Origin: a bacterium | GTDB lineage: Bacteria; Armatimonadota; Chthonomonadetes; Chthonomonadales; JAMCWF01 | NCBI GenBank assembly: GCA_021842405.1 | Contig: JAKBZR010000001.1 | Location: 18,865 to 82,864, forward strand | Direction: 5' to 3' | DNA: 64,000 bases | Shown here: positions 16,639 through 50,927 of the stretch, one piece after another | How the letters are laid out: every line of letters begins with the position of its first letter | Numbering within the stretch: position 1 is the first letter of the stretch | Notes under the pieces: generated by a model | Told to the model about the DNA's origin: nothing | Seen by the model: the letters and a program-made list of their open reading frames with translations, nothing else | The model's database searches: none | Translations under genes and position numbers: made by a program

Positions 16639-16843
16639 GCCACCGTGTAACAGTTCAGTTTTGTGGGAATGATTTTCGTTCGCGCCCAGCTCAGCATTCC
16701 CCCGTCAACGGGGGAAGGTTAGGATGGGGGTTAAGGCGCACCGCCCTGTCTGCCGCCAGGCAGACAACTCTTTTCCCAATTCTGTGAGAGTGCTGGGGGA
16801 AGAGATGGCTTCGCTTCGCTCGCAATGACACCCTCCCCCTTAA

Positions 16844-38095: not shown

Positions 38096-40708
38096 TTATA
38101 GATGCTTTCCCCCGAAGGGTGGGGCCGGTCGGTGGTACCTATGAATGATCCGACGGGGGCGATAGACACGGCGGCTTGCAGTCAGGGTTATTGAAGTGGA
38201 TACGCCCGGAGTTAAACTCACGCGGCGGGTTATCCCACTCCATATAAGTTGAACTGCCTCCGGATGTCCCGAGCGCACTTGTAACGCGAGCTGGGCCGGT
38301 GAAATGGAGGTGATGGTCAATCTGGTGGGCTTCTGACACCGAATCGTGACCGGAAACGGCGCCAAGGCTCCTCCTGGATTTTCCACGATGTAGTGGCTGG
38401 GGTTGGCCAACTGCTGGGCTCGGACCGCCAAACGGTAGGAGGTGACCGGCTCATTGTTTGCATAAGCGCTGAGCGAGGCGTTCCAGTCATACCGGCTGTA
38501 AGCATTTTGTTCTTTCCAATTCACCGAAGTGCTGAGGCGATGGATCAGATTGAAGGGGTCCTCCCAGTTTTCAACGATCAAGCTGCGCGCGCGTTCCGCT
38601 GCGATGTCGGCCAGGATGCGCACCGCAGGGGAGCCATCCGGTGATAATCGCACGGATGGAATTGGGCCGCTGATATGCTCCACCGCTACCCGATAGTTAA
38701 AGCCCGGTTTTTGCGGGATCAAGGTAGGGAGGTAGATTGATAACCAGCCGCTGTTTGGAACTACCGGTACGGTGATGGTGAAAAGATTATGGTCGGTTGC
38801 AATGTCTCGTAAGCTGACTACGATGGTGCACGGCGCCCCAGCCAGCGAGAGGTCAATTCGATTGATTCCGAATGAGCCGGTCGGAGCCGCATAGGATCGG
38901 AAAATCGGTTGATTGAGCGGGCGTGCGGCTACCCCGCTGGATGGAGAATCCATCACGCCGGTCGGTTCTTCAATGGTGGTCTCAAACCGTTGGAGGAGGG
39001 CGCTTAGGTTCTTGACATAAGGCCAATTGAACAAGGTCACGTAACGGCAGCCGGTTGCGTAGGCGGCCTGCAGGCAGCCAATGAGCTCATCCTCGTTCTT
39101 GGCGCCGGTACACTCAAGATTGGGTAAGGCGGTGCGACCGAACTCGCGCTCCTTTAACAACCAGGACAGCATCTCGGCTCCGTTCCAGTATTCCCCTCCG
39201 CTGCACCCATTTTCGACCGATCCCAGCTCGATCCCGGGGTGCCATTCGGTGACCTCTTTCAACGGATAGAGCGGCATCGCGTAGGGCTCGGTGTATATGT
39301 TGTCAATGGTTAATTTTGTGCGTGAAGTGCGATGGCTGTTGCTGCCGATTAGGATTGGATCGGGTTGGAGTGAGCTGATCATGTCGTTGACCAGCCGCTG
39401 CTGCTGGCGCGCCAAATTTTGATGTAGCCACCATCTCTCGCTCCCGGTCAGCCCATCCTTTGGGTTGAGCATCACGCCGTCTTTTGCGGCGGCCGCGACG
39501 GTGGCCGGGTTAAAATCGGCCTCCAGATGGGTTCTCGGTATTCCGTGATTGAAAGCGGTATAGCCATGGTCGTCAACGCCGTCCGCCCAGTAGATCGTCT
39601 CATCGCCGGTGGAGAGTGAATGGGGGAAAAGGCCGCCATCCTCGACCAAGGCCAGCCGATCACACTGCGACTGCCATGCTTTGAGCGCCGCCTTTAGCCG
39701 ATCGGCGCGGAATTCATTCAGGTGATGATTGTTAAAGGTCATCCATGGGGTATTCCCCCAAACGTTGGGCACCGATAGCCCGTAATGAACATCATAGCTT
39801 GATCCCAGTAGTTTCTGTAGGGCTGGAATGACGACTTGATTTTGGGGCGAGTAAACGATCTGCTGATAGGTGGGATCGGAGAAAGTACCCCCCAACCCAT
39901 CGGGAACGCCTTTAGGAACGCCCCCCCAGTCGGTTTCAAATCGGATTCGCAAGGGAAAATGGGCACGCATCGCAAGATCAGCAAGCTGGCCGATGTACTG
40001 TTGGTCCTGGCTATCGCTTCGAGCGCAGTAGTTAATGAGAACGGTCGCCTCCGGTTTAATGAATTGACTGGGAGGGATCGTCTTTTTTATGGCTGCCATC
40101 TCGCCGGCGTCAATTTGATAGCCGGATCCCTCGGGGGACAATAAACCGAGTCGCATGGAGAGGTCGTTCAAGGATGGGTGCCACTGATCGCCGGTGCCGC
40201 GATAGGCTCGGATCAGTGAGATGATCACCGGCGCTTCGGAATCGGGAAGAGCCTGAACTTCGATCGTGGTATGGGTGGTGCCGGGTTTCACCTCAAGGAA
40301 GATGGATTGCTTGATCCCGCCGCCCGGATCCAGGGAATAGGCGCGGTATCGCTCTTGATCGTTGATCAAAATCCGGTAGGATTTTATCTTTCCGTAGTCG
40401 GCGAGCGGCGTTGAGAAGACGAATTGAAGGGTGGCGCCGCGGGGGTTGGTCAGCAACTGCAAGGATAAGTCTCCCTTGCCGGGCTCAAGGGAGATGCCGG
40501 CCAAGGTGCGGTTGACGGTGCCGACCATCGCATGGCTGTGAAGGATCTCGGCATTATCGTAATGCACCGCATGGCGCCGCATAGAGGGCAATGAGGCTAG
40601 GTTCACCCAGTCGGTGACGTGGGGTTGTAGGGCGGCATTTGCCGGAGACCCGGCGTTAAGGAAAATGAGAAATGTGAGCGCAACCCCTATTAACTTCGGT
40701 GCTTTCAT
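38096..40708 (-). CDS. secreted protein of unknown function, 870 aa
   Basis: signal peptide MKAPKLIGVALTFLIFLNAGSPANA; long clean ORF; no recognisable family motif. Confidence 0.6.
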   Translation of the reverse strand: MKAPKLIGVALTFLIFLNAGSPANAALQPHVTDWVNLASLPSMRRHAVHYDNAEILHSHAMVGTVNRTLAGISLEPGKGDLSLQLLTNPRGATLQFVFSTPLADYGKIKSYRILINDQERYRAYSLDPGGGIKQSIFLEVKPGTTHTTIEVQALPDSEAPVIISLIRAYRGTGDQWHPSLNDLSMRLGLLSPEGSGYQIDAGEMAAIKKTIPPSQFIKPEATVLINYCARSDSQDQQYIGQLADLAMRAHFPLRIRFETDWGGVPKGVPDGLGGTFSDPTYQQIVYSPQNQVVIPALQKLLGSSYDVHYGLSVPNVWGNTPWMTFNNHHLNEFRADRLKAALKAWQSQCDRLALVEDGGLFPHSLSTGDETIYWADGVDDHGYTAFNHGIPRTHLEADFNPATVAAAAKDGVMLNPKDGLTGSERWWLHQNLARQQQRLVNDMISSLQPDPILIGSNSHRTSRTKLTIDNIYTEPYAMPLYPLKEVTEWHPGIELGSVENGCSGGEYWNGAEMLSWLLKEREFGRTALPNLECTGAKNEDELIGCLQAAYATGCRYVTLFNWPYVKNLSALLQRFETTIEEPTGVMDSPSSGVAARPLNQPIFRSYAAPTGSFGINRIDLSLAGAPCTIVVSLRDIATDHNLFTITVPVVPNSGWLSIYLPTLIPQKPGFNYRVAVEHISGPIPSVRLSPDGSPAVRILADIAAERARSLIVENWEDPFNLIHRLSTSVNWKEQNAYSRYDWNASLSAYANNEPVTSYRLAVRAQQLANPSHYIVENPGGALAPFPVTIRCQKPTRLTITSISPAQLALQVRSGHPEAVQLIWSGITRRVSLTPGVSTSITLTASRRVYRPRRIIHRYHRPAPPFGGKHL

Positions 40709-41110: not shown

Positions 41111-41950
41111 TTAGTTCTGCGGAGTCGGGGTAGTGTGCGCTGGGCTCTTGAGATTGGATTTTTGATGGGAACGGCTCTTCGGCTCAAGGTTGCCGATAGT
41201 CAGCTTGTGCCATGGCATCCATTTGGAATGGCCGTCCGCAAAGGCGACGAGATCGCCGCCGTGGTGGCGGGTTGCGTTATCGAGCCGCTCTTGGCCGTAT
41301 TTTTGGATTAATTTTTCAGCCGATTGGTTTTTCAGCCACATCAGCTTGTTGCCGGCATCGTTGGAGAAAGCAATCCCCGCTACGATCAAATCGGCCGATT
41401 TACCGGTGGGGTCGGGGAGTGAATTGACGAGTTGTGGCGCCGAATCGGCCAGCATCAACGTGTTTACGGGTTCCGGAATATTCGCCAAGCGGTTCCCTTT
41501 ATGTCCGCCGGTCAGCCACTCATTCAGCCCGAAGGAGACATAGTTTGCCGGGTGCGTCGGGCCGAACAGATCGTTCGCGCCGCTGTCGTCGCTGCAGCCG
41601 CTCCAGTAGTCGTTCCAGCGCAACACGTCGGCCGGATCGCGATATACCGAAACTTTGTCCGTGTAGGGATAGATCACATCGGTCCAGAAGGAGGCCGAAT
41701 CGCGAGGCGCCCCGTGGTTTCCCCCCTTGCAGTAGTATTGGATATTCCAGTAGGGGTAGAGCTCGTCGTAGTCTTGGTTGTACATCGCCATCGCAAGACT
41801 CAGTTGTTTGATGTTGGAAAGGGCGATGTCGGTCAGGCTTGTCTTCTTTTCCTGAGCGATGCCCGGCGCTAGGATCGCGGCTAACAGAGCGATGACCGCG
41901 ACCGCCACGCCGCCTTCAAATAGTGAAACCCTCTTGCGCTTCAATTTCAC
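41111..41950 (-). CDS. H-X9-DG (DUF1559) prepilin-like protein with degenerate N-terminal leader
   Basis: 279 aa; C-terminal HHGGDLVAFADGH gives H-X9-DG; N-terminus has a hydrophobic helix but VSLFEG instead of GFTLIE. Confidence 0.7.
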   Translation of the reverse strand: MKLKRKRVSLFEGGVAVAVIALLAAILAPGIAQEKKTSLTDIALSNIKQLSLAMAMYNQDYDELYPYWNIQYYCKGGNHGAPRDSASFWTDVIYPYTDKVSVYRDPADVLRWNDYWSGCSDDSGANDLFGPTHPANYVSFGLNEWLTGGHKGNRLANIPEPVNTLMLADSAPQLVNSLPDPTGKSADLIVAGIAFSNDAGNKLMWLKNQSAEKLIQKYGQERLDNATRHHGGDLVAFADGHSKWMPWHKLTIGNLEPKSRSHQKSNLKSPAHTTPTPQN

Positions 41951-42090
41951 AAGCTCCTTTCGAGTGAGCGCTGGAACGTCTATCTCAAACGGATGTCAAT
42001 GCGAATCCCGGAATTGTTTACCACTGGAAGCAAAAGGATTAACATAAATATACCATAATTGCAATCTAAATCTCATGAATTGAAATTGCG

Positions 42091-42270
42091 AAAGAGTTCA
42101 GTTTTGCGGGAATGATTTTCGTTCGACCCCACCCCAGCCCTCCCCGCAAGCGGGGAGGGCGTCATTGCGAGCGAAGCGAAGCAATCTCATTCCCCGGTTC
42201 TCCCCCGAGAGGGGTGAGGTGATTTATCGGTCAGCTTTTAATTCCCACAAAACTGAACTCTTACCTCTTT
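42091..42270. repeat. type-1 MITE-like element
   Basis: inverted termini aaagagttcagttttgcgggaat / attcccacaaaactgaactcttacctcttt; internal hairpins ccctccccgcaagcggggaggg and cattgcgagcgaagcgaagcaatc; no flanking direct repeat found. Confidence 0.65.
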
Positions 42271-42282
42271 CCGCACATCTTG

Positions 42283-42311
42283 TTGACGTGGGTATAGGGC
42301 GCGGGTATAAT
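42283..42311 (+). promoter_or_regulatory. sigma70-type promoter driving the T-box leader
   Basis: TTGACG (42283-42288), 17-nt spacer, TATAAT (42306-42311). Confidence 0.7.
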
Positions 42312-42335
42312 GGGCGGGTGAAGTAGGCTAATAAT

Positions 42336-42638
42336 GGGCTTTGAGGAAGAGGAGTAAGCGATGGGGGCGCCACAGAGAGCCGGGAAGGGTGAGAACCGGT
42401 GCAGCCGAAGTCGCTGAAATGGCTTCTGAGCCACCGACCTGAAACCACTGGATATTGTGGAATTAGGGTCGGCCGGGGGGCTCCCGTTACAGGGCTAGGG
42501 TGTAGAGTCTTCTCCCTTTAGACAGAACAGCACCCGTCGAGGTCGTCCCCGTGAGGGTTCGGCGAAGGTCAGGTGGTACCACGAGAAATACGCCTCTCGT
42601 CCTGGTCGCATCGGCGTTCGGGACGGGTGGCTTTTTTT
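42336..42638 (+). promoter_or_regulatory. T-box riboswitch leader, Specifier AUG (Met)
   Basis: Stem I base 42337-42340/42429-42432. Specifier loop: 5-prime AGGAGUA (42350-42356), 3-prime GAA-AUG-G (42416-42422). AG bay AGAGA 42374-42378; distal loop GGUGAGA 42388-42394; F box CCGUUA 42484-42489; T-box AGGUGGUACCACG 42571-42583. Terminator plus U7 follows. Confidence 0.85.
42592..42638 (+). terminator. intrinsic terminator of the T-box leader
   Basis: GCC-U-CUCGUCC (42592-42602) pairs with GGACGGG-U-GGC (42621-42631), followed by TTTTTTT (42632-42638). Confidence 0.75.
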
Positions 42639-42675
42639 GTTAGCGCCTGTGCCCGGCGAAAACTTACGGAGGTTA

Positions 42676-43929
42676 ATGATGGCGAAAGTTTTAGGCTTGA
42701 GATGCCGCGAGTGCGGGCAAGAATACGGGGTGGTGCCCAACCACGTCTGCGAGATGTGCTTCGGCCCGCTCGAAGTACGTTACGATTACGAGGAGATTGG
42801 CCATCGAATTTCACGGACATCCATAGAATCCGGCCCGCCCAGCATCTGGCGCTATAAAGATCTGCTGCCCATTGACGGCGAGCCAACCGTGGGCTTGAAC
42901 TGCGGATGGACGCCGCTGGTTCGGGCGGAGCGTCTGGGGCGTGAGCTGGGGCTGCGCAATCTGTATCTAAAGAACGACAGCGTCAACCACCCAACCCTTT
43001 CTTTCAAAGACCGGGTCGTTTCGGTCGCCCTGACGAAGGCGCGGGAGTTCGGATATGAGGTGGTGGCCTGTGCCTCCACCGGCAATCTGGCCAACTCAGT
43101 AGCGGCCCACGCCGCCGAGGGCGGATTTACCAGCTACATTTTCATCCCTGACAATCTGGAGCTGGGTAAAGTGTTGGGCACGCTGGTCTACGGCGCGAAT
43201 GTGCTTGCGGTCAGCGGAAACTACGATGAAGTGAATCGGCTTTGCGCGGAGGCGGTCGGAAAGTACAATTGGGCATTCGTCAACATAAATTTAAGGCCCT
43301 ACTACGGTGATGGTAGCAAAACCTTCGGCTATGAGATCGCGGAGCAGTTGGGGTGGAGAGCGCCCGACCACATCGTGGTGCCTTGTGCGGGCGGTTCGCT
43401 GATGTCGAAGACCTATAAGGGGTTGAATGAGCTGGCGCAATTGGGCATAATTCCACCGGTTAAAACTAAAATGTACGCGGCGCAGGCCTCCGGTTGCTCA
43501 CCCATCACCACCGCCATTAAGACGAAATCCGATGTCATTCGCCCGGTTAAGCCCAATACCATCGCCAAGTCCATCGCAATCGGCAATCCGGCTGACGGTT
43601 ACTACGCGATCGATACGGTGCGAAAAAGCGGCGGCTGGGCCGAAGATGTAACCGACGATGAGGTTATTGAGGGCATCAAACTGCTGGGACGTACCGAAGG
43701 TATATTTACCGAGACGGCCGGCGGAGTGACGGTGGCGGTGGCCCGAAAGCTGGTGGAGCAGGGGCGTCTGCCGGCCGATGAACTGGTGGTGCTGGCCATT
43801 ACCGGCAACGGACTGAAAACGCAGGAGGCGGTTACCGACTGTCTATCCCAGCCGATGCACATTCAGCCCAACTTGACTTCGCTGAAAGAGGCGATCGGCC
43901 TCCAGCGTCAGGCGGCGTTGAGCGTCTGA
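42676..43929 (+). CDS. threonine synthase-like PLP enzyme with N-terminal zinc ribbon (candidate O-phosphohomoserine sulfhydrylase)
   Basis: CRECGQEY...CEMCFGPL zinc ribbon; PLP-lysine motif PTLSFKDRV; start placed after the leader terminator at the ATG following GGAGG (42668-42672). Confidence 0.8.
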   Translation: MMAKVLGLRCRECGQEYGVVPNHVCEMCFGPLEVRYDYEEIGHRISRTSIESGPPSIWRYKDLLPIDGEPTVGLNCGWTPLVRAERLGRELGLRNLYLKNDSVNHPTLSFKDRVVSVALTKAREFGYEVVACASTGNLANSVAAHAAEGGFTSYIFIPDNLELGKVLGTLVYGANVLAVSGNYDEVNRLCAEAVGKYNWAFVNINLRPYYGDGSKTFGYEIAEQLGWRAPDHIVVPCAGGSLMSKTYKGLNELAQLGIIPPVKTKMYAAQASGCSPITTAIKTKSDVIRPVKPNTIAKSIAIGNPADGYYAIDTVRKSGGWAEDVTDDEVIEGIKLLGRTEGIFTETAGGVTVAVARKLVEQGRLPADELVVLAITGNGLKTQEAVTDCLSQPMHIQPNLTSLKEAIGLQRQAALSV

Positions 43930-43944
43930 TTGAATGGTCGCAAA

Positions 43945-43965
43945 CTGGGGAATTGAACTAATTCG
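43945..43965. repeat. possible solo remnant of a type-1 terminus
   Basis: ctggggaattgaactaattcg resembles ctcagagaattgaactcattcg at 17241-17262. Confidence 0.3.
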
Positions 43966-44041
43966 ACGGATTGGAGCGATCATTTCATTCGTCCCATCTG
44001 TCCTATTTCCTATAGTCCTATATCGAGGAGGTTAAACATAA

Positions 44042-44317
44042 ATGCCGGTAACCGTATTGATTCCAACACCGCTCCGGAAACTAACCAATGAACAGGATAG
44101 CGTCGAAACGTCCGCATCCACAATCGCCGGCTTAATCCAGGATCTCAATCAACAGTTTCCCGGATTGGGTGCCCGATTGACCGACGAGACCGGAGCATTA
44201 CGACGCTTTGTCAATATCTATGTGAACGAGGAGGATATTCGTTTTTTGAAGGGAACGGAGACGCCGCTTGCCGACGGCGATTCGGTGTCTATCGTGCCAT
44301 CTATTGCGGGCGGTTAA
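44042..44317 (+). CDS. CysO/MoaD/ThiS-family sulfur carrier protein
   Basis: 91 aa ending AGG; strongly resembles my recollection of M. tuberculosis CysO (VTV.IPT.LR ... RFVNIYVNEEDIRF ... ADGDSVSI.P..AGG). Confidence 0.85.
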   Translation: MPVTVLIPTPLRKLTNEQDSVETSASTIAGLIQDLNQQFPGLGARLTDETGALRRFVNIYVNEEDIRFLKGTETPLADGDSVSIVPSIAGG

Positions 44318-44366
44318 TGTGATCGAAACGGATGGCAGCCTGTAATCAACAGTGAGGGGAAGCGGT

Positions 44367-44618
44367 ATGGCTTTAATTCAGGTTCACATAACGGCGACGA
44401 GAGACCAAGTTAGCGAGCCGATTTTATACCGGCTGGCGAAGGACTTCAATGTGGTGACCAACGTGCGCCGCGCACAGGTTGAGGAAGATTATGCATTTGT
44501 GGCGGTGGATATCGAAGGTTCTCTGCCCGAGGTGCAGCGCGCCATCGCCTGGCTTCAGACGACCGGTTTGCATATTGATCCAAAGGAACGATCGGTCAGC
44601 GATCGCGGAAACCTGTAG
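44367..44618 (+). CDS. stand-alone NIL-domain protein
   Basis: 83 aa from the ATG after GAGGGGA; C-terminal QRAIAWLQTTGLHIDP resembles the MetN C-terminal NIL region (AAIAWLQEHHVKVEV, from memory). Confidence 0.65.
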   Translation: MALIQVHITATRDQVSEPILYRLAKDFNVVTNVRRAQVEEDYAFVAVDIEGSLPEVQRAIAWLQTTGLHIDPKERSVSDRGNL

Positions 44619-44681
44619 TTCCGGGTCGTCAAATTTTCAATCCGTAAGGCGAATGCCGGAATTGGGCGGCGGGTCAAGAAA

Positions 44682-46073
44682 ATGGAACTTATCGAGCGAG
44701 TTGAAGCAACGATCCGCCGTTACAATATGTTTGATCGGCAGACCAGAGTGTTGGCAGCGGTATCGGGCGGTGCCGATTCAATCGCGCTTTTGCATCTGCT
44801 GAAGCGGCTTTCAGCCCCATTGGAAATAGAGCTGTATGTTGCCCATCTGAATCATCAATTGCGGGGCGAGGAAGCGGATCAGGATGCCGAATCGGTCCGC
44901 GAGCTCTGTTTGAGCTGGGGATTATCGCTCAAGATCGGTTGCCGGGATATCAGGGCGATTCGGAAGCGGCGTCATCTCTCGACGCAAGAGGCGGCACGGG
45001 AAGAGCGCTATCGCTTCCTGAGTGAAGCGGCCGATGAAGTTGGAGCCCACCGAATCGCGGTCGGCCATCATCGAGATGATCGGGCCGAAACCGTTCTGTT
45101 GCATATAATAAGGGGCTGCGGGATCAGCGGGCTGACCGGAATACCGCCGGTTTCGGGGATGGTGGTGCGCCCGCTGATCGAGATCGGACGATCGGAAATC
45201 GCGGATTATTGTCGTGAAAACCATCTATTTTACCGGCAGGATTCCTCGAATACCAATCTTCGTTACCGCCGCAATCACCTGCGATCGGAACTGATTCCTT
45301 TCATCCAATCGTATTACAACCCACAGCTCCCGAAGAGCCTGTTACGGCTTGCCGACCTTGCAGGGGATGATGATGAGGCACTGAACGCCGTTACCGCCCA
45401 GTGTATGGATACCCTGGTGATCCGAAATACAAAGGATCGTCTGGAGATAGATACAGCCGCGCTTCTTAAGCAGCCGAGGGCGGTTCAGCGGCGTGCGGTT
45501 CGCCGGGCGATTGATCGGGTACGCGACAGCCTTGAGGATATCCCTTTTTCCCTAGTGGAACGCGCACTGGATGCGCTGAAACGTGGAGAAAAATTGGGGG
45601 TGAATTTGCCAGGCGGCCGGGTACGATTAAGCAGCCAGGCAGGCAGGTTCGTCGTCTTCAGGGAAGCGGATCCGGTTTCGATATTGCCGGTCGCCCAAGA
45701 ATTGGAGGTGCCCGGCCACCTACGGGTCGAGGCGCTGAACGTCGAGATTTGGGCCAGTGCATCTCCCATGGAAACAACCGGCAGCGATTTGATGGTGAAG
45801 GTGTCCGCATCGGCGGTACGCCCGCCGATGGTGGTGAGGAATTGGCGAGCGGGCGATATCCTTACAACATCCAACGGCCATCATAGAAAGTTACAGGATG
45901 TTTTTACCGATAAGAAGGTTGAACGCGAAAAGCGGCACCGGATTCCCATTATAGCGGATGTGGACGGCATCGTATGGGTGGTGGGAGTGATGCCGGATCA
46001 TCGGCCGGAAGCGACTGAGGGCGGACCGGCCATCTACCTGAAAGCGCGGTGGCTGTCAGAAGAGGAGTGTTAA
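44682..46073 (+). CDS. tilS: tRNA(Ile)-lysidine synthase
   Basis: 463 aa; PP-loop VLAAVSGGADSIALLHLL; conserved position upstream of ftsH. Confidence 0.9.
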   Translation: MELIERVEATIRRYNMFDRQTRVLAAVSGGADSIALLHLLKRLSAPLEIELYVAHLNHQLRGEEADQDAESVRELCLSWGLSLKIGCRDIRAIRKRRHLSTQEAAREERYRFLSEAADEVGAHRIAVGHHRDDRAETVLLHIIRGCGISGLTGIPPVSGMVVRPLIEIGRSEIADYCRENHLFYRQDSSNTNLRYRRNHLRSELIPFIQSYYNPQLPKSLLRLADLAGDDDEALNAVTAQCMDTLVIRNTKDRLEIDTAALLKQPRAVQRRAVRRAIDRVRDSLEDIPFSLVERALDALKRGEKLGVNLPGGRVRLSSQAGRFVVFREADPVSILPVAQELEVPGHLRVEALNVEIWASASPMETTGSDLMVKVSASAVRPPMVVRNWRAGDILTTSNGHHRKLQDVFTDKKVEREKRHRIPIIADVDGIVWVVGVMPDHRPEATEGGPAIYLKARWLSEEEC

Positions 46074-46117
46074 TGGCCTGATTGAGGGGCGGCAATGGCT
46101 TGCCGATAAAACGGGCA

Positions 46118-46126
46118 TGCTATAAT
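46118..46126 (+). promoter_or_regulatory. candidate extended -10 promoter element upstream of ftsH
   Basis: TGcTATAAT at 46118-46126, 46 nt before the ftsH ATG; no good -35. Confidence 0.3.
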
Positions 46127-46171
46127 ACAAATGTGAACATTTGCGCCGAAGGGGAATAAGGACTTTTATCC

Positions 46172-48145
46172 ATGAACAACAACAAAGGGCTGAAGATCCT
46201 GATCAGCATTTTGATGATCGGACTGATCGTACTGGCCTTTAAATCGTCGGCATTAAGGGATCTCGGAGAATCGCCTGAAACAGTCTCATACTCCACCTTT
46301 GTGAATGAGGTAGAGAACCACAATGTCGCGCGTGGGACCATCAATGATAATACGTTCTCCGGCGAATATCTCCGCAAGCCGGTTTCATCCCGATCCAGCA
46401 AGTTCAATGTTGATATCGGCAGCTCAGGAAATCAGCGGGACCTGATTAAGCTGTTGTTGGCGAACCACGTCAAATTTGACTATACGCATCCCTTATTCTC
46501 ACCCCTTGTTCAAAACTTGTTGATCAGCTTCTTACTGCCTTTCCTATTGATTGTGGTTTTATGGATCTGGTTCATGCGCCAGGCGCAATCGGGGGGTAAC
46601 CAGGCGCTTTCTTTCGGCCGAAGCCGGGCAAAGCGATTGACCGACAGCGTTCCTAAAATCACCTTCGATGACGTGGCCGGAGTGGATGAGGCGAAACAGG
46701 AGTTGGAAGAGATCGTTGAGTTTCTCAAGAACGCCAAAAAATTTCAGGCGTTGGGAGCGAAGATTCCAAAGGGCGTTTTGCTTTTAGGACCGCCTGGATG
46801 CGGCAAAACGCTTCTGGCCAGAGCGGTTGCCGGTGAGGCCAACGTTCCCTTCTTTCATATCAGCGGCTCCGACTTCGTCGAGATGTTTGTGGGCGTTGGT
46901 GCTTCACGGGTTCGAGACCTTTTTGAGACCGCTAAAAGCAACCGGCCGAGCTTGATTTTCATTGATGAGATTGATGCGGTGGGCCGCCTGCGGGGCGCAG
47001 GGTTAGGGGGTGGCCATGATGAGCGCGAGCAGACGTTGAATCAGTTGTTGGTGGAGATGGACGGTTTTGACCCGAACGCCGGCGTCATCTTAATAGCAGC
47101 CACGAACCGGCCGGACGTTTTGGATCCGGCGCTTCTTCGACCGGGGCGATTTGATCGCCGGGTGGTAGTGGATTCACCGGATTTTAGGGGTCGGGCTGAA
47201 ATTTTGAGAGTACACCTCCGTGGAAAACCGTTGGACTTTGATCACAGCGAAGAAGAGCGGGAAAAAGTGGTTAAAAATTTAGCCCAGCGGACTCCCGGTT
47301 TTACCGGTGCTGACATTATGAACTTGGTGAACGAGGCGGCCCTGCTGGCCGCAAGACGCAATAAGACCAAAGTATCGATTCAGGAGTTTGAAGAATCGAT
47401 TGATCGGGTCATTGCTGGCCCCGAGCGAAAAAGCCGGGTGATGACGGAGGCGGTCCGCAGGCGAACTGCCTACCATGAAGTCGGTCATGCGATTGTCGGA
47501 GAAACGCTGGAACACGCCGATCCAATCCATAAGGTTTCCATTTTGCCGCGGGGTATGGCCCTGGGTTACACAATCAGCCTGCCCAGTGAAGATCGTTACA
47601 ACATGACAAAGAGCGAGCTGGAAGACAGTATCGCAATGGCGTTGGGCGGACGAGTTGCGGAGCAGGTCGTTTTCGGGGAGATGGATACCGGCGCTTCAAG
47701 GGACCTGGATCAAGCCACCGATGTGGCGCGAGCGATGGTTTGTGAATATGGAATGAGCGAGCGGCTAGGACCGTTGCGATTGGGCCGGCGCCACGGCAGC
47801 CCCTTTTTGGGGCGAGACATCATGGAGGATCGGGACTACAGTGAAGAGGTAGCTCAGGCCATTGATGAAGAGGTGCGCTCTATTATTGACCAGTGCTATC
47901 AACATGCGAAGCAGATATTGACCCAGAAGCGCGATAAGCTGGAGCTGATTGCAAGCGTACTTCTCGAAAAGGAAGTTCTTGAGCGGGAAGCGTTTGTCGC
48001 TCTCTTAAAAGGTGACGCCACCGCGATAGAGCCAAGTAAGGCACCGCCCAGCGACAGCTCGGGGCCATTCGGCACGCCGGAAATCCCGTCTCCGAAAGAG
48101 GTTCCGGCCCCACCCTTGTTTCGCCCCGAGCCGGGTGTAGCGTAG
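46172..48145 (+). CDS. ftsH: ATP-dependent zinc metalloprotease FtsH
   Basis: 657 aa; Walker [15 protein letters not shown] region, zinc motif HEVGHAIV, two N-terminal TM helices. Confidence 0.95.
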
Positions 48146-48167
48146 TTCCTACCTCAAACGGTAGCCG

Positions 48168-50927
48168 TCACTGGCGGTACATCGAAACCGCCTCGTGGAT
48201 TGGTAATTCGGCCGTCTGAATGGTAAGAGTACGATTTGAGGGGTTATACTCCCAGCCAACGCTGCCCTCAGTTTTCTGCTTGGGTAAAACGACTCCGTTA
48301 ACCATTACGCGATGGGGCCGGTAGACGTTTACCATCTCGACTCGATAGGAACGACGCACCAATTGCCCTGGATAGCTTCCCTTTTCCGGTTCAACCGTTA
48401 ATACCCCACTCTTTAAGTGGATCGGCGTCCAGGCATACTGGCCGTGCTCGTAGCCAAACCCATCACCGGCATCCTCGTAGAGCTTAAAGTACCCATTCGC
48501 TCCTGGATACACCCTCAATATGAGCGGATCCACCGGTTTAGCTCCCACGTGCTCCATATACGGCTGCATCGGGATAATGCCGCCCATCTTAACGAAGACT
48601 GGCATACGATCCAGCGGGCAGGTGATCTTTTCAACGTTGGGGCCACGATAGGTGTGGCCGGTAAAGAAATCGGTCCAGGTACCGGGTGGGAACCATACAT
48701 TCCGGGATGCCATATCACCGGGGCGCGCGATCGGCGCAACGAGCATTTCGCGGCCGAATAGATACTCATGGTCAAAGGTATAGGCGTAGGGATCGTTAGG
48801 CCAGTAGAGGTACATTCCGCGAGCCATCGGCAAGCCGGTGTCGTGTGCTTGGCGGGAAAGGGTGTAAAGGTAGGGGATCAGCGATTCACGCAGTCGCATG
48901 AATTTGTCGGCCGACTCGCGAGCTGCAGCGCCGTATTCCCACGGCAAGCGATATCCGTGATTGGAGTGAAGCCGTAAAATCGGTTGAAAGGCGCCTAACT
49001 GAACCCAGCGAGCATAGAGGTCATCGGGATCGCGCGGGTTATTGGGCGGCGGGCCGTTGAAGCTGCCGATGTCGTGGGTAACGTAGGGGAGGCCGATATT
49101 CCCTTCCCGAATGGTGAAATAATCCTCGAAATCCAGCATCGCCCAGGTGGCGGAGGTATCGCCGGTGAAGTGAACGCTGTAACGATGCTCCGCCCAAGGA
49201 CCGGCTGGATAGGTCCCTCTCCAGTTCTGCAACGAGGATCCGATGCGGGAAAAGGCAAAACCACGCAAGCCGGTGCGATCGATATCATGGGTGTAAAGGT
49301 AGTTGATCCACGTGTCCGGCGTGATGCCCGGCATGCCGGCGCGACTGTTGTCGCAGCACCAGTCCAGCCACCAAAACCGTACGCCTTGCTTTTCAAACGG
49401 ATGATGTAGTGCAAAGTAAGATCGTGCCTGGGCGGGGACGCTCCAATCCCAGACGTAGTTTCGATTGCCATTGTTAATCAAGCCGCCGGCAATGCGATTG
49501 GCGAGCGGAAATTGGGGATCGTCCTTCTGAATGCTGGAGTGGATGTTTAGCGTTACGTGAAGGCCCTGCTGTTTGCACCATGCCAAAAATTGGGTGGGAT
49601 GGGGGAACAGCTTTCGATTCCACTCCCAGCCGTTCCATCTGCTGGGGGCTTTGAAATCGGTATCAATTACCAGCACATCGAGCGGCACCCGCTCAGAGCG
49701 GAATTCCGGGATCAGTTTTTGCTGGTAGTCGGTGGCGTGGTAGGGAAAGTAACGGGAAAACCAGTTGCCGAATGCCCAGCGCGGCAGCAGCGGCGGATGG
49801 CCGGTGAGGTTGGCGAACTGATCGAGCGCCTCACGGTAGTGGTGGCCGTAACCAAAGAAATAGCCGTCTTGATAGGGGCCTCGATGCGGAGGGCGTGGCG
49901 TGACCCATCCGTTGGGCAGAAAGATAGCGGTCTGGCTGTCATCCAGCAAATACCAGCCATCCCGGCAAAGCAGGCCGTTGTGAAGCGGTATCGGGCCACT
50001 TTGTCCGTCCAAGCTGCGGAACCAGCCGCCCAAATTATTGGAAGAGGGTACGGTTGCTGTCTTTACGGCAGGAGGGGCGGTTGGCGCCGATTCGCCCGGC
50101 TTTAAAACCGCGATGTAATCTACATTAATGTTACCGCTGTCTTTTTTTGAATAAGTTAATGAGACGCTGTCGCTGCCTTTTCGTAAAGTGATGTTCGGCT
50201 CGATCGAGGCCCAGTCATCCCAGTTGTTGGTGGTTGGGAAGGTGAGCGGGCCGGCATCCACGCCATTTATAACCAAATCCATCGTTCGGGGCTCCAGCTT
50301 GCCGTCGCCGCCGCGATTGTTTGAGTATCGGATTAAAAGGGGATAAGTACCGCTGGTCGGCACGTCGAGGATTTGCCACGAGATGGTGGCGCCGACTGCC
50401 TGGATTCCGGCCACAAACCCTTCACCGGAGTAGCCGGAATGATCTCTCGCCAACGAGGCTCCTCCTCCCAGCTCGGCGTCCTCGGCCTGGCCGATCCGCC
50501 CAAGCTCCACCGGGCTGGCGATGCTGCCAAATCGGGGATGGGCCATCACCGTATGCCCATCCACCTTCAGAGTAACGCTGAGATTATGGGGCGTAAAAGG
50601 CCCCGAGTGCAGCCGGTAGCGCAGCAGCAAATCGGCCGTGCGGATAGTAAGCCAGCCGTTGTAAATTTGGGTTGCATAGGGCGTATAGGGAAAATTACGG
50701 TGAATGACGTTGAAGGTGGGGCGATTTTCGAACTTCCCATCGGCCGCATATTCGAGACGGATCAGCATTGGGGTTAAAATTTGAAAGCGAGCATGCCCCG
50801 CCACGACGGTGTCAGCGCGGGATGATCGCGAAGCCGCGTACCCGGCGGATGGTAATCCGCTGGAAGCAAGAACCGCAACGGTAGCAACAAGTAAAGACCG
50901 GTAAGTGTTTAAATGGATGCGCATCAA
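48168..50927 (-). CDS. glycoside hydrolase family 31-like enzyme with inserted CBM6/35-like module
   Basis: 919 aa; signal peptide; IPLDVLVIDTDF and FWWLDWCCDN GH31-like core; CBM-like segment GEGFVAG...NINVDYIAV. Confidence 0.65.
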   Translation of the reverse strand: MMRIHLNTYRSLLVATVAVLASSGLPSAGYAASRSSRADTVVAGHARFQILTPMLIRLEYAADGKFENRPTFNVIHRNFPYTPYATQIYNGWLTIRTADLLLRYRLHSGPFTPHNLSVTLKVDGHTVMAHPRFGSIASPVELGRIGQAEDAELGGGASLARDHSGYSGEGFVAGIQAVGATISWQILDVPTSGTYPLLIRYSNNRGGDGKLEPRTMDLVINGVDAGPLTFPTTNNWDDWASIEPNITLRKGSDSVSLTYSKKDSGNINVDYIAVLKPGESAPTAPPAVKTATVPSSNNLGGWFRSLDGQSGPIPLHNGLLCRDGWYLLDDSQTAIFLPNGWVTPRPPHRGPYQDGYFFGYGHHYREALDQFANLTGHPPLLPRWAFGNWFSRYFPYHATDYQQKLIPEFRSERVPLDVLVIDTDFKAPSRWNGWEWNRKLFPHPTQFLAWCKQQGLHVTLNIHSSIQKDDPQFPLANRIAGGLINNGNRNYVWDWSVPAQARSYFALHHPFEKQGVRFWWLDWCCDNSRAGMPGITPDTWINYLYTHDIDRTGLRGFAFSRIGSSLQNWRGTYPAGPWAEHRYSVHFTGDTSATWAMLDFEDYFTIREGNIGLPYVTHDIGSFNGPPPNNPRDPDDLYARWVQLGAFQPILRLHSNHGYRLPWEYGAAARESADKFMRLRESLIPYLYTLSRQAHDTGLPMARGMYLYWPNDPYAYTFDHEYLFGREMLVAPIARPGDMASRNVWFPPGTWTDFFTGHTYRGPNVEKITCPLDRMPVFVKMGGIIPMQPYMEHVGAKPVDPLILRVYPGANGYFKLYEDAGDGFGYEHGQYAWTPIHLKSGVLTVEPEKGSYPGQLVRRSYRVEMVNVYRPHRVMVNGVVLPKQKTEGSVGWEYNPSNRTLTIQTAELPIHEAVSMYRQ

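Follow-up and report, generated by a model that had tools for sequence, protein, structure and literature searches.

A T-box leader with a methionine Specifier in front of a candidate MetM/MetO-type operon in Armatimonadota

In a 64,000-nt stretch of DNA from a bacterium of the phylum Armatimonadota (order Chthonomonadales; contig JAKBZR010000001.1 of assembly GCA_021842405.1, positions 18,865 to 82,864), called the window below and numbered from its first letter, a complete class I (transcriptional) T-box leader stands in front of a gene that is annotated as threonine synthase (ThrC), and the Specifier of this leader reads methionine. Very probably it is a methionine-specific, transcription-attenuating T-box that controls three genes, for a MetM-type enzyme, a MetO-like sulfur carrier and a protein with a NIL domain. 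The ThrC-like enzyme is most likely a MetM-type homocysteine synthase, an assignment that is drawn from synteny and regulation, not from measured orthology or activity. The features are collected in Table 1.

An Rfam scan of the whole window gave RF00230 (T-box) as the sole family at its gathering score. The match scores 98.5 bits (E = 1.9e-20), where 93 is the gathering score, and its alignment runs over the full length of the model (positions 1-219 of 219). This agrees with the first-pass annotation, which was made from the sequence alone and had read all canonical T-box elements here, in order, behind a TTGACG-17-TATAAT promoter; when checked against the sequence, every element from the base of Stem I to the U7 run was found where it had been placed. 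The promoter is also present, with 11 of 12 consensus matches and the top score of all sigma-70-like sites across the 6.5 kb that were scanned (41900-48400), and transcription would start at about 42318.

All motifs of Stem I align to RF00230, which are the K-turn (UGA 42342-42344 and GA 42428-42429), the S-turn AGUA of the Specifier loop (42353-42356), the codon with its purine, the AG bay AGAGA (42374-42378) and the distal loop GGUGAGA (42388-42394). The lower helix consists of gaag 42346-42349 and cttc 42423-42426, while the upper helix consists of agcga 42357-42361 and tcgct 42411-42415. At the base of the stem, ggct 42337-42340 faces agcc 42429-42432 as had been noted, with the exception of U42340 and A42429, which had been counted as a pair and probably do not form a Watson-Crick one; A42429 is part of the GA of the K-turn (UGA...GA). 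Stem II carries S-turn-like loop elements (GAAA...AUUA), and the F box CCGUUA (42484-42489) closes the Stem IIA/B region. Between the F box and Stem III, an extra hairpin is predicted at 42498-42535, which is an unaligned insertion relative to the Rfam model.

The Specifier codon is confirmed as AUG (methionine) by alignment to the family model and by comparison with relatives, as the first-pass annotation had proposed. In the RF00230 alignment, GAA takes columns 87-89, position 90 is deleted and AUG takes columns 91-93 with high posterior probability, while G42422 occupies the conserved purine column immediately 5' of the CUUC strand of the lower helix. Among the homologous leaders described below, AUG is invariant in 20 of 20 (the window, 18 related loci and the cultured species Chthonomonas calidirosea). 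In the window and the 18 loci, the base 5' of AUG is A (15 leaders) or C (4) and the base 3' of it is G (12), A (6) or U (1), therefore neither the -1 frame (AAU or CAU) nor the +1 frame (UGG, UGU or, in 6 of 19 leaders, the stop codon UGA) is conserved. If the true Specifier stood in one of these registers, or at another triplet such as ACC 42444-42446, a tRNA other than tRNA-Met would be sensed. Such a shift by the aligner is possible in principle, as the 3' side of the Specifier loop in the window has 7 nt instead of 8 with one model position deleted, and MAFFT moved GAA by one column. However, the covariance model sets AUG and the purine right against the lower helix, and AUG is the only invariant triplet. 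As for ACC, which had been named beforehand as the triplet that would overturn the methionine reading, it lies in the loop of Stem II, outside Stem I, and is not what the covariance model gives. We regard a different Specifier as very improbable.

The 3' part of the leader contains two alternative folds. The isolated segment 42566-42608 folds to the canonical antiterminator (-12 kcal/mol), in which the helices GGUCAGG/CCUGGUC and ACGAGA/UCUCGU are split by the 7-nt bulge UGGUACC (42574-42580). The T-box sequence AGGUGGUACCACG (42571-42583) lies inside it, and the bulge begins with UGGU (42574-42577), which could base-pair with ACCA at the 3' end of the tRNA. The longer segment 42560-42645 folds at -34.9 kcal/mol (z = -3.0) and prefers a long hairpin with its core at 42592-42631; a terminator-like site was called at 42615-42629 plus the T run. 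This bears out the helix followed by U7 that had been read as the terminator, and both alternatives do fold when they are compared. Because CUCGUCCUGG serves both as the 5' strand of the terminator and as the 3' strand of the antiterminator, only one of the two folds can form at a time. The ribosome-binding site GGAGG (42668-42672) lies 3' of the terminator and is not sequestered; the leader is therefore a class I, transcription-attenuating T-box.

To describe the relatives, we fetched 80 genomic loci, each encoding a relative of the downstream ThrC-like protein, and built a covariance model of Stem I (called R1) from an alignment of the window with 4 Rfam-positive loci, which was run on the 80 loci and the window. 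It turned out that Stem I is found 5' of the gene in the window (94.2 bits) and in 18 of the 80 loci, where 250-500 nt separate its elements from the orthologous gene behind them; R1 has no match in the other 62 loci. Most of the 18 are named as Armatimonadota (Chthonomonadales, Capsulimonadaceae, Armatimonadales), and two are labelled only as bacterium; the closest relatives place those without such a name in the same phylum. The T-box motif NGGUGGNACCRCG is kept in 15 of the 18, and a hairpin with a T run is found in most of the leaders. The cultured C. calidirosea has a Stem I with GAA-AUG-G upstream of the same gene, and its leader is below the Rfam gathering score. Besides the window, the gathering score was reached by 4 of 16 related loci scanned, which makes 5 of the 20 homologous leaders. 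The remaining leaders were found only by R1 and would therefore be missed by routine annotation pipelines.

Stem I covaries strongly in the window and the 18 loci: 94% of the cells are paired and 18 of 22 pairs have changed on both sides, in an alignment that was fitted to the Stem I model and is hence biased towards the structure. None of 500 shuffles reached the observed value, and slid registers pair 35-45% of the cells. The lower helix, which frames the codon, has changed in a compensatory way (GAAG/CUUC, GGAG/CUCC and AAGA/UCUU, with AAGG/CCUU in C. calidirosea). For the 16 loci from outside Armatimonadota that were scanned (Nitrospinota, Nitrospirota, Omnitrophota and others), neither a T-box nor any other Rfam family was found upstream of the orthologous gene at gathering score. 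The ThrC-like and ThiS-like pairs without a T-box are those of L015, L017, L018, L021 and L023-L080, which come from Nitrospinota, Nitrospirota, Omnitrophota and other phyla.

The bulge also varies among the relatives. A73 is the usual discriminator of bacterial tRNA-Met, and UGGU in the window is compatible with it. In five leaders (L005, L008, L009, L014 and L016) the bulge, about 100-200 nt 5' of the gene, starts with UGGA, which would mismatch A73; the T-box sequence of L009 and L016 is AGGUGGAAUCACG. Because the fourth bulge base normally pairs with the tRNA discriminator, these leaders imply either a tRNA-Met with U73 or a tolerated mismatch. We sought tRNA-Met genes in the window and the 18 related loci and found none, the only tRNAs being those for Arg and Gly in L005.

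The gene behind the leader had been described as similar to threonine synthase, and the protein does belong to this family. It matches TIGR00260 (thrC) with 284.7 bits (cut-off 167) and PALP with 240.6 bits, while the PRK08197 threonine synthase model gives 290.9, just under its cut-off of 303. The protein starts at ATG 42679 (or 42676) and carries an N-terminal CxxC...CxxC zinc ribbon and the lysine motif SFKDR for pyridoxal 5'-phosphate (PLP). The second gene encodes a ThiS/MoaD-family protein that ends in ...SIAGG. A C-terminal Gly-Gly is the hallmark of sulfur carriers that are thiocarboxylated at the C-terminal glycine. This protein also matches the moaD_arch and SAMP1-like models, both under their curated cut-offs. 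The third gene encodes a stand-alone NIL-domain protein. The three genes are probably co-transcribed, because of their order, their strong ribosome-binding sites and the lack of a terminator-like site between the first two.

Table 1. Features of the T-box leader and of the three genes behind it (positions in the window)
Feature	Position	Strand	Basis or remark
Promoter, sigma-70-type	42283..42311	+	TTGACG 42283-42288, 17-nt spacer, TATAAT 42306-42311
T-box leader, Stem I through antiterminator	42332..42607	+	RF00230 match
Stem I	42337..42432	+	RF00230 alignment, Stem I model R1, covariation
Specifier codon AUG (Met)	42419..42421	+	RF00230 codon columns, invariance in relatives
Stem II (42434-42472) and Stem IIA/B region	42434..42489	+	RF00230 alignment, predicted fold
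Extra hairpin (42498-42535) and Stem III (42542-42563)	42498..42563	+	Predicted fold only
Antiterminator	42567..42607	+	Canonical bulged hairpin
Intrinsic terminator, hairpin 42592-42631 and U7 42632-42638	42592..42638	+	Fold, terminator-like site
ThrC-family PLP enzyme, 417 aa, candidate MetM-type homocysteine synthase	42679..43929	+	PALP, TIGR00260
ThiS/MoaD-family sulfur carrier, 91 aa, MetO-like candidate	44042..44317	+	PF02597, 67.3 bits
Stand-alone NIL-domain protein, 83 aa from ATG 44367 (88 aa from GTG 44352)	44367..44618	+	PF09383, 43.5 bits

The order of the genes is widely conserved. A ThiS-like gene follows the ThrC-like gene in 77 of the 80 loci (77 of 78 that can be evaluated); of the other three, two are cut off by the edge of the contig and L022 has a lone ThrC-like gene. 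The paired loci span Armatimonadota, Nitrospinota, Nitrospirota, Omnitrophota, Elusimicrobia, Caldisericota and Margulisiibacteriota. Near the pair, a ThiF-family E1-like enzyme is encoded in 55 of the 80 loci, CysM/CysK-type PALP genes in about 60 and TusA in 4. The gene content is that of a protein-thiocarboxylate sulfur-transfer system and not of threonine synthesis. Nor is the genomic and regulatory context what threonine synthesis would lead one to expect, in that the leader reads methionine and the conserved partners are sulfur-transfer genes. In the 17 loci that have both a T-box and a NIL gene, the latter comes after the ThiS-like one, and NIL genes recur in clusters of other phyla. 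In C. calidirosea the NIL gene lies one gene further on, in the order ThrC-like, ThiS, zinc-ribbon gene and NIL.

According to the GapMind 2026 preprint (doi 10.1101/2024.10.14.618325), which summarises the pathway that Hasebe et al. 2024 (Appl Environ Microbiol 90:e01247-24) described in Streptomyces albulus, MetM is homologous to ThrC and forms homocysteine from O-phosphohomoserine and the thiocarboxylate of MetO, and the name threonine synthase is often given to it in error. A Microcystis "ThrC" encoded next to a MetO-like gene shares 51.6% identity with MetM (PMC12172450). The match to this pathway and the conserved adjacent carrier gene support the earlier proposal that the operon serves methionine instead of threonine. 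That proposal had also called a methionine leader on a ThrC-like gene unexpected; the combination is real, and the surprise is lessened, since the pathway was described in 2024.

A different reading accepts the T-box but takes the gene to encode a true threonine synthase that is controlled by methionine, which would be a cross-pathway regulation at the O-phosphohomoserine branch point. The TIGR00260 score well above the cut-off would fit this, as would the closest solved structures, all of which are canonical threonine synthases (about 190-198 bits, with the first ~50 residues uncovered), the name given in every source annotation, and the related Microcystis protein, which has ThrC and threonine deaminase activities in vitro (PMC12172450). 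However, a threonine synthase that is switched on by a shortage of methionine would draw O-phosphohomoserine away from the methionine branch, just when the cell needs the reverse. Moreover, the Gly-Gly carrier gene that follows in nearly all loci, the frequent ThiF, the CysM-like genes and the occasional TusA are none of them needed for threonine, and there are documented cases in which such ThrC homologues are MetM proteins under a wrong name (doi 10.1101/2024.10.14.618325). We therefore hold a genuine threonine synthase to be improbable.

With a MetM-type enzyme as the product, the leader would work as follows. Transcription would start at the promoter, and the nascent Stem I would dock a tRNA through pairing between its CAU anticodon and the AUG of the Specifier. 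When methionine is scarce, the 3' ACCA of the uncharged tRNA would pair with the bulge UGGU, so that the tRNA-bound antiterminator is held together and RNA polymerase reads through. When the tRNA is charged with methionine, the stabler terminator with its U7 run would form and transcription would stop before the genes. The MetM-type enzyme would then use O-phosphohomoserine and a protein thiocarboxylate to form homocysteine. The RNA family, the register of the Specifier, the mutually exclusive folds, the gene families and the conserved order of the genes are observed here, whereas the binding of tRNA-Met, the readthrough on methionine starvation and the MetM activity are what these observations would predict.

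The CAU anticodon is common to elongator tRNA-Met, initiator tRNA-fMet and the precursor of tRNA-Ile2, so the ligand might instead be one of the latter two, with the operon (perhaps including tilS) tied to translation initiation or lysidine status. The methionine T-box of S. aureus binds the initiator strongly and elongator tRNA-Met weakly (PMC3771891). Furthermore, a stretch of 63 nt that has no terminator-like site separates the NIL gene from tilS (44682-46073, plus strand), which is followed by ftsH; tilS encodes lysidine synthetase, which modifies the CAU anticodon of tRNA-Ile2, and this anticodon would also match the AUG Specifier. On the other side, tilS adjoins the operon in none of the 80 related loci, nor in C. 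calidirosea. It is therefore treated as outside the regulated unit, and the link between tilS, the AUG Specifier and tRNA-Ile2(CAU) was rejected as a probable coincidence. No sequence feature separates initiator from elongator recognition, and with either tRNA the signal would still be methionine charging, which leaves the physiological reading unchanged. We think such an alternative ligand unlikely, though less so than a genuine threonine synthase.

Several findings weigh against a methionine-specific T-box on a MetM/MetO-type operon. As for the RNA, the Rfam alignment includes 4 non-canonical pairs, one of which is a C-A in the 3-bp helix below the AG bay, and the folding energy of Stem I is not distinctive (z = -0.9). 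Plain RNAfold picks out neither Stem I nor the Stem II-III region; the thermodynamics of both were set aside as evidence, and support was taken from the covariance model and the covariation in relatives. No tRNA gene was found in the 64-kb window. As for the genes, NCBIfam, like the source annotations, names the ThrC-like protein threonine synthase, and a gap of 112 nt separates its gene from the ThiS-like gene. A homologue search of the window found no ThiF/MoeZ, TusA or Mec-type gene, so the enzyme that activates the carrier must be encoded elsewhere. Finally, the MetM-like ThrC of Microcystis acted in vitro mainly as a threonine deaminase or synthase (PMC12172450), thus membership in the family does not guarantee MetM activity.

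The stand-alone NIL protein may be an undescribed third component of the MetM/MetO route, co-regulated by the methionine T-box and acting as a methionine-binding feedback subunit or as a sulfur-relay partner; we offer this only tentatively. A tie between NIL domains and methionine is already known: MetN has one, and so has a NIL/ferredoxin protein that is required for the unrelated DUF39 homocysteine pathway. If the proposal is true, a NIL role in both routes would point to a common, so far unexplained NIL function in homocysteine formation. The length of the NIL protein is not constant across lineages: that of the window has 83 aa, that of L024 (8712-9218) has 168 aa and two NIL repeats, and that of C. 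calidirosea (L081:7391-7927) has 178 aa.

Other genes are found around the clusters in some relatives. In C. calidirosea (L081:6366-11257), ThiD-like, ThiC, DAO-family oxidase and ThiG genes converge on the end of the ThrC-like/ThiS/NIL cluster, and there the sulfur carrier might be shared with thiamine synthesis; in the window, the thiamine genes are not beside the cluster. A gene of the chlorite-dismutase family (PF06778, 191.9 bits) lies between the ThrC-like and ThiS-like genes in 9 Armatimonadota loci (L008-L014, L016 and L020, e.g. L010:5364-6200), 3' of the methionine T-box. Homologues of the AIRS, DsrE and chlorite-dismutase-like genes of related clusters were searched for in the 64-kb window, and none was found.

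The wider neighbourhood in the window is unrelated, with genes for flagellin, FliD, a glycosyltransferase, GH31, a SurA-like protein, EPSP synthase and MreB. Upstream of the leader, two open reading frames on the minus strand (38096-40708, 870 aa, and 41111-41950, 279 aa) matched nothing in Pfam or NCBIfam at E <= 0.001. Just 5' of the promoter lies a dispersed repeat (42137-42190, plus strand), a perfect 11-bp hairpin GCCCTCCCCGC/GCGGGGAGGGC that is followed by GTCATTGCGAGCGAAGCGAAGCAATCTC. A second copy of its core of about 45 nt is found 25 kb away at 16804-16827 on the minus strand, where none is expected by chance.

The T-box family, including methionine-specific members, and the MetM/MetO pathway are both already known, and the understanding of neither mechanism is changed. 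What appears to be new, as far as we found, is the pairing of a T-box with the MetM/MetO pathway, the host phylum Armatimonadota and the conserved NIL-domain gene. A literature search for T-boxes in Armatimonadetes returned no paper, and when it was widened to Chthonomonas or Armatimonadota there was none among the matches listed. Transcriptional T-boxes are evidently used in this phylum and are under-annotated there, most of the leaders being below the Rfam gathering score. For a clade of misannotated "threonine synthase" genes, the leader gives RNA-based regulatory support for a methionine role that is independent of protein similarity. It lends weight to the MetM/MetO pathway in a distantly related phylum and is of use for re-annotation, and the same arrangement in the cultured C. 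calidirosea makes direct tests practical.

Compared with well-studied class I T-boxes (tyrS and glyQS of B. subtilis, glyQ of Oceanobacillus iheyensis), the leader shares the full architecture from the K-turn to the U-tract terminator, while it is GC-rich (59%) and its host belongs to Armatimonadota and not to Firmicutes. It differs from the RF00230 model in a Specifier loop whose 3' side is 1 nt shorter and in the extra hairpin. Methionine-specific T-boxes are known to control met genes in Staphylococcus and Lactobacillales (PMC3771891). With the S. aureus metICFE-mdh leader and the Lactobacillales T-boxes, the leader in the window has in common the AUG Specifier and the transcriptional control of methionine genes; unlike metICFE, the genes it would regulate belong to a MetM/MetO-type thiocarboxylate route.

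In S. albulus, metM lies behind an upstream S-adenosylmethionine (SAM) riboswitch, according to a 2025 mSystems paper that cites Hasebe 2024 (PMC12172450). As the S. albulus system is described in the citing papers, a ThrC-homologous PLP enzyme beside a ThiS/MoaD carrier under a methionine-related riboregulator is common to both, whereas the regulator in the window is a methionine T-box and not a SAM riboswitch. The window is also without MoeZ/ThiF and Mec, has the NIL-domain gene in addition, and encodes a carrier that already ends in Gly-Gly, so that trimming of the Mec type seems unnecessary. One pathway is thus placed under two methionine-related riboregulators, the SAM riboswitch in Streptomyces and the tRNA-Met T-box in the window, which would represent convergent regulation.

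In the CysO-CysM-Mec-MoeZ system for cysteine in M. tuberculosis and in the HcyS-dependent methionine synthesis of Wolinella succinogenes, a ThiF-type enzyme thiocarboxylates a ubiquitin-like Gly-Gly carrier, from which the sulfur passes to a PLP enzyme. The operon in the window appears to follow the same logic, and related loci carry ThiF and CysM-like genes by the pair. The difference lies in the PLP enzyme, which in the window is of the ThrC family instead of being CysM or MetY.

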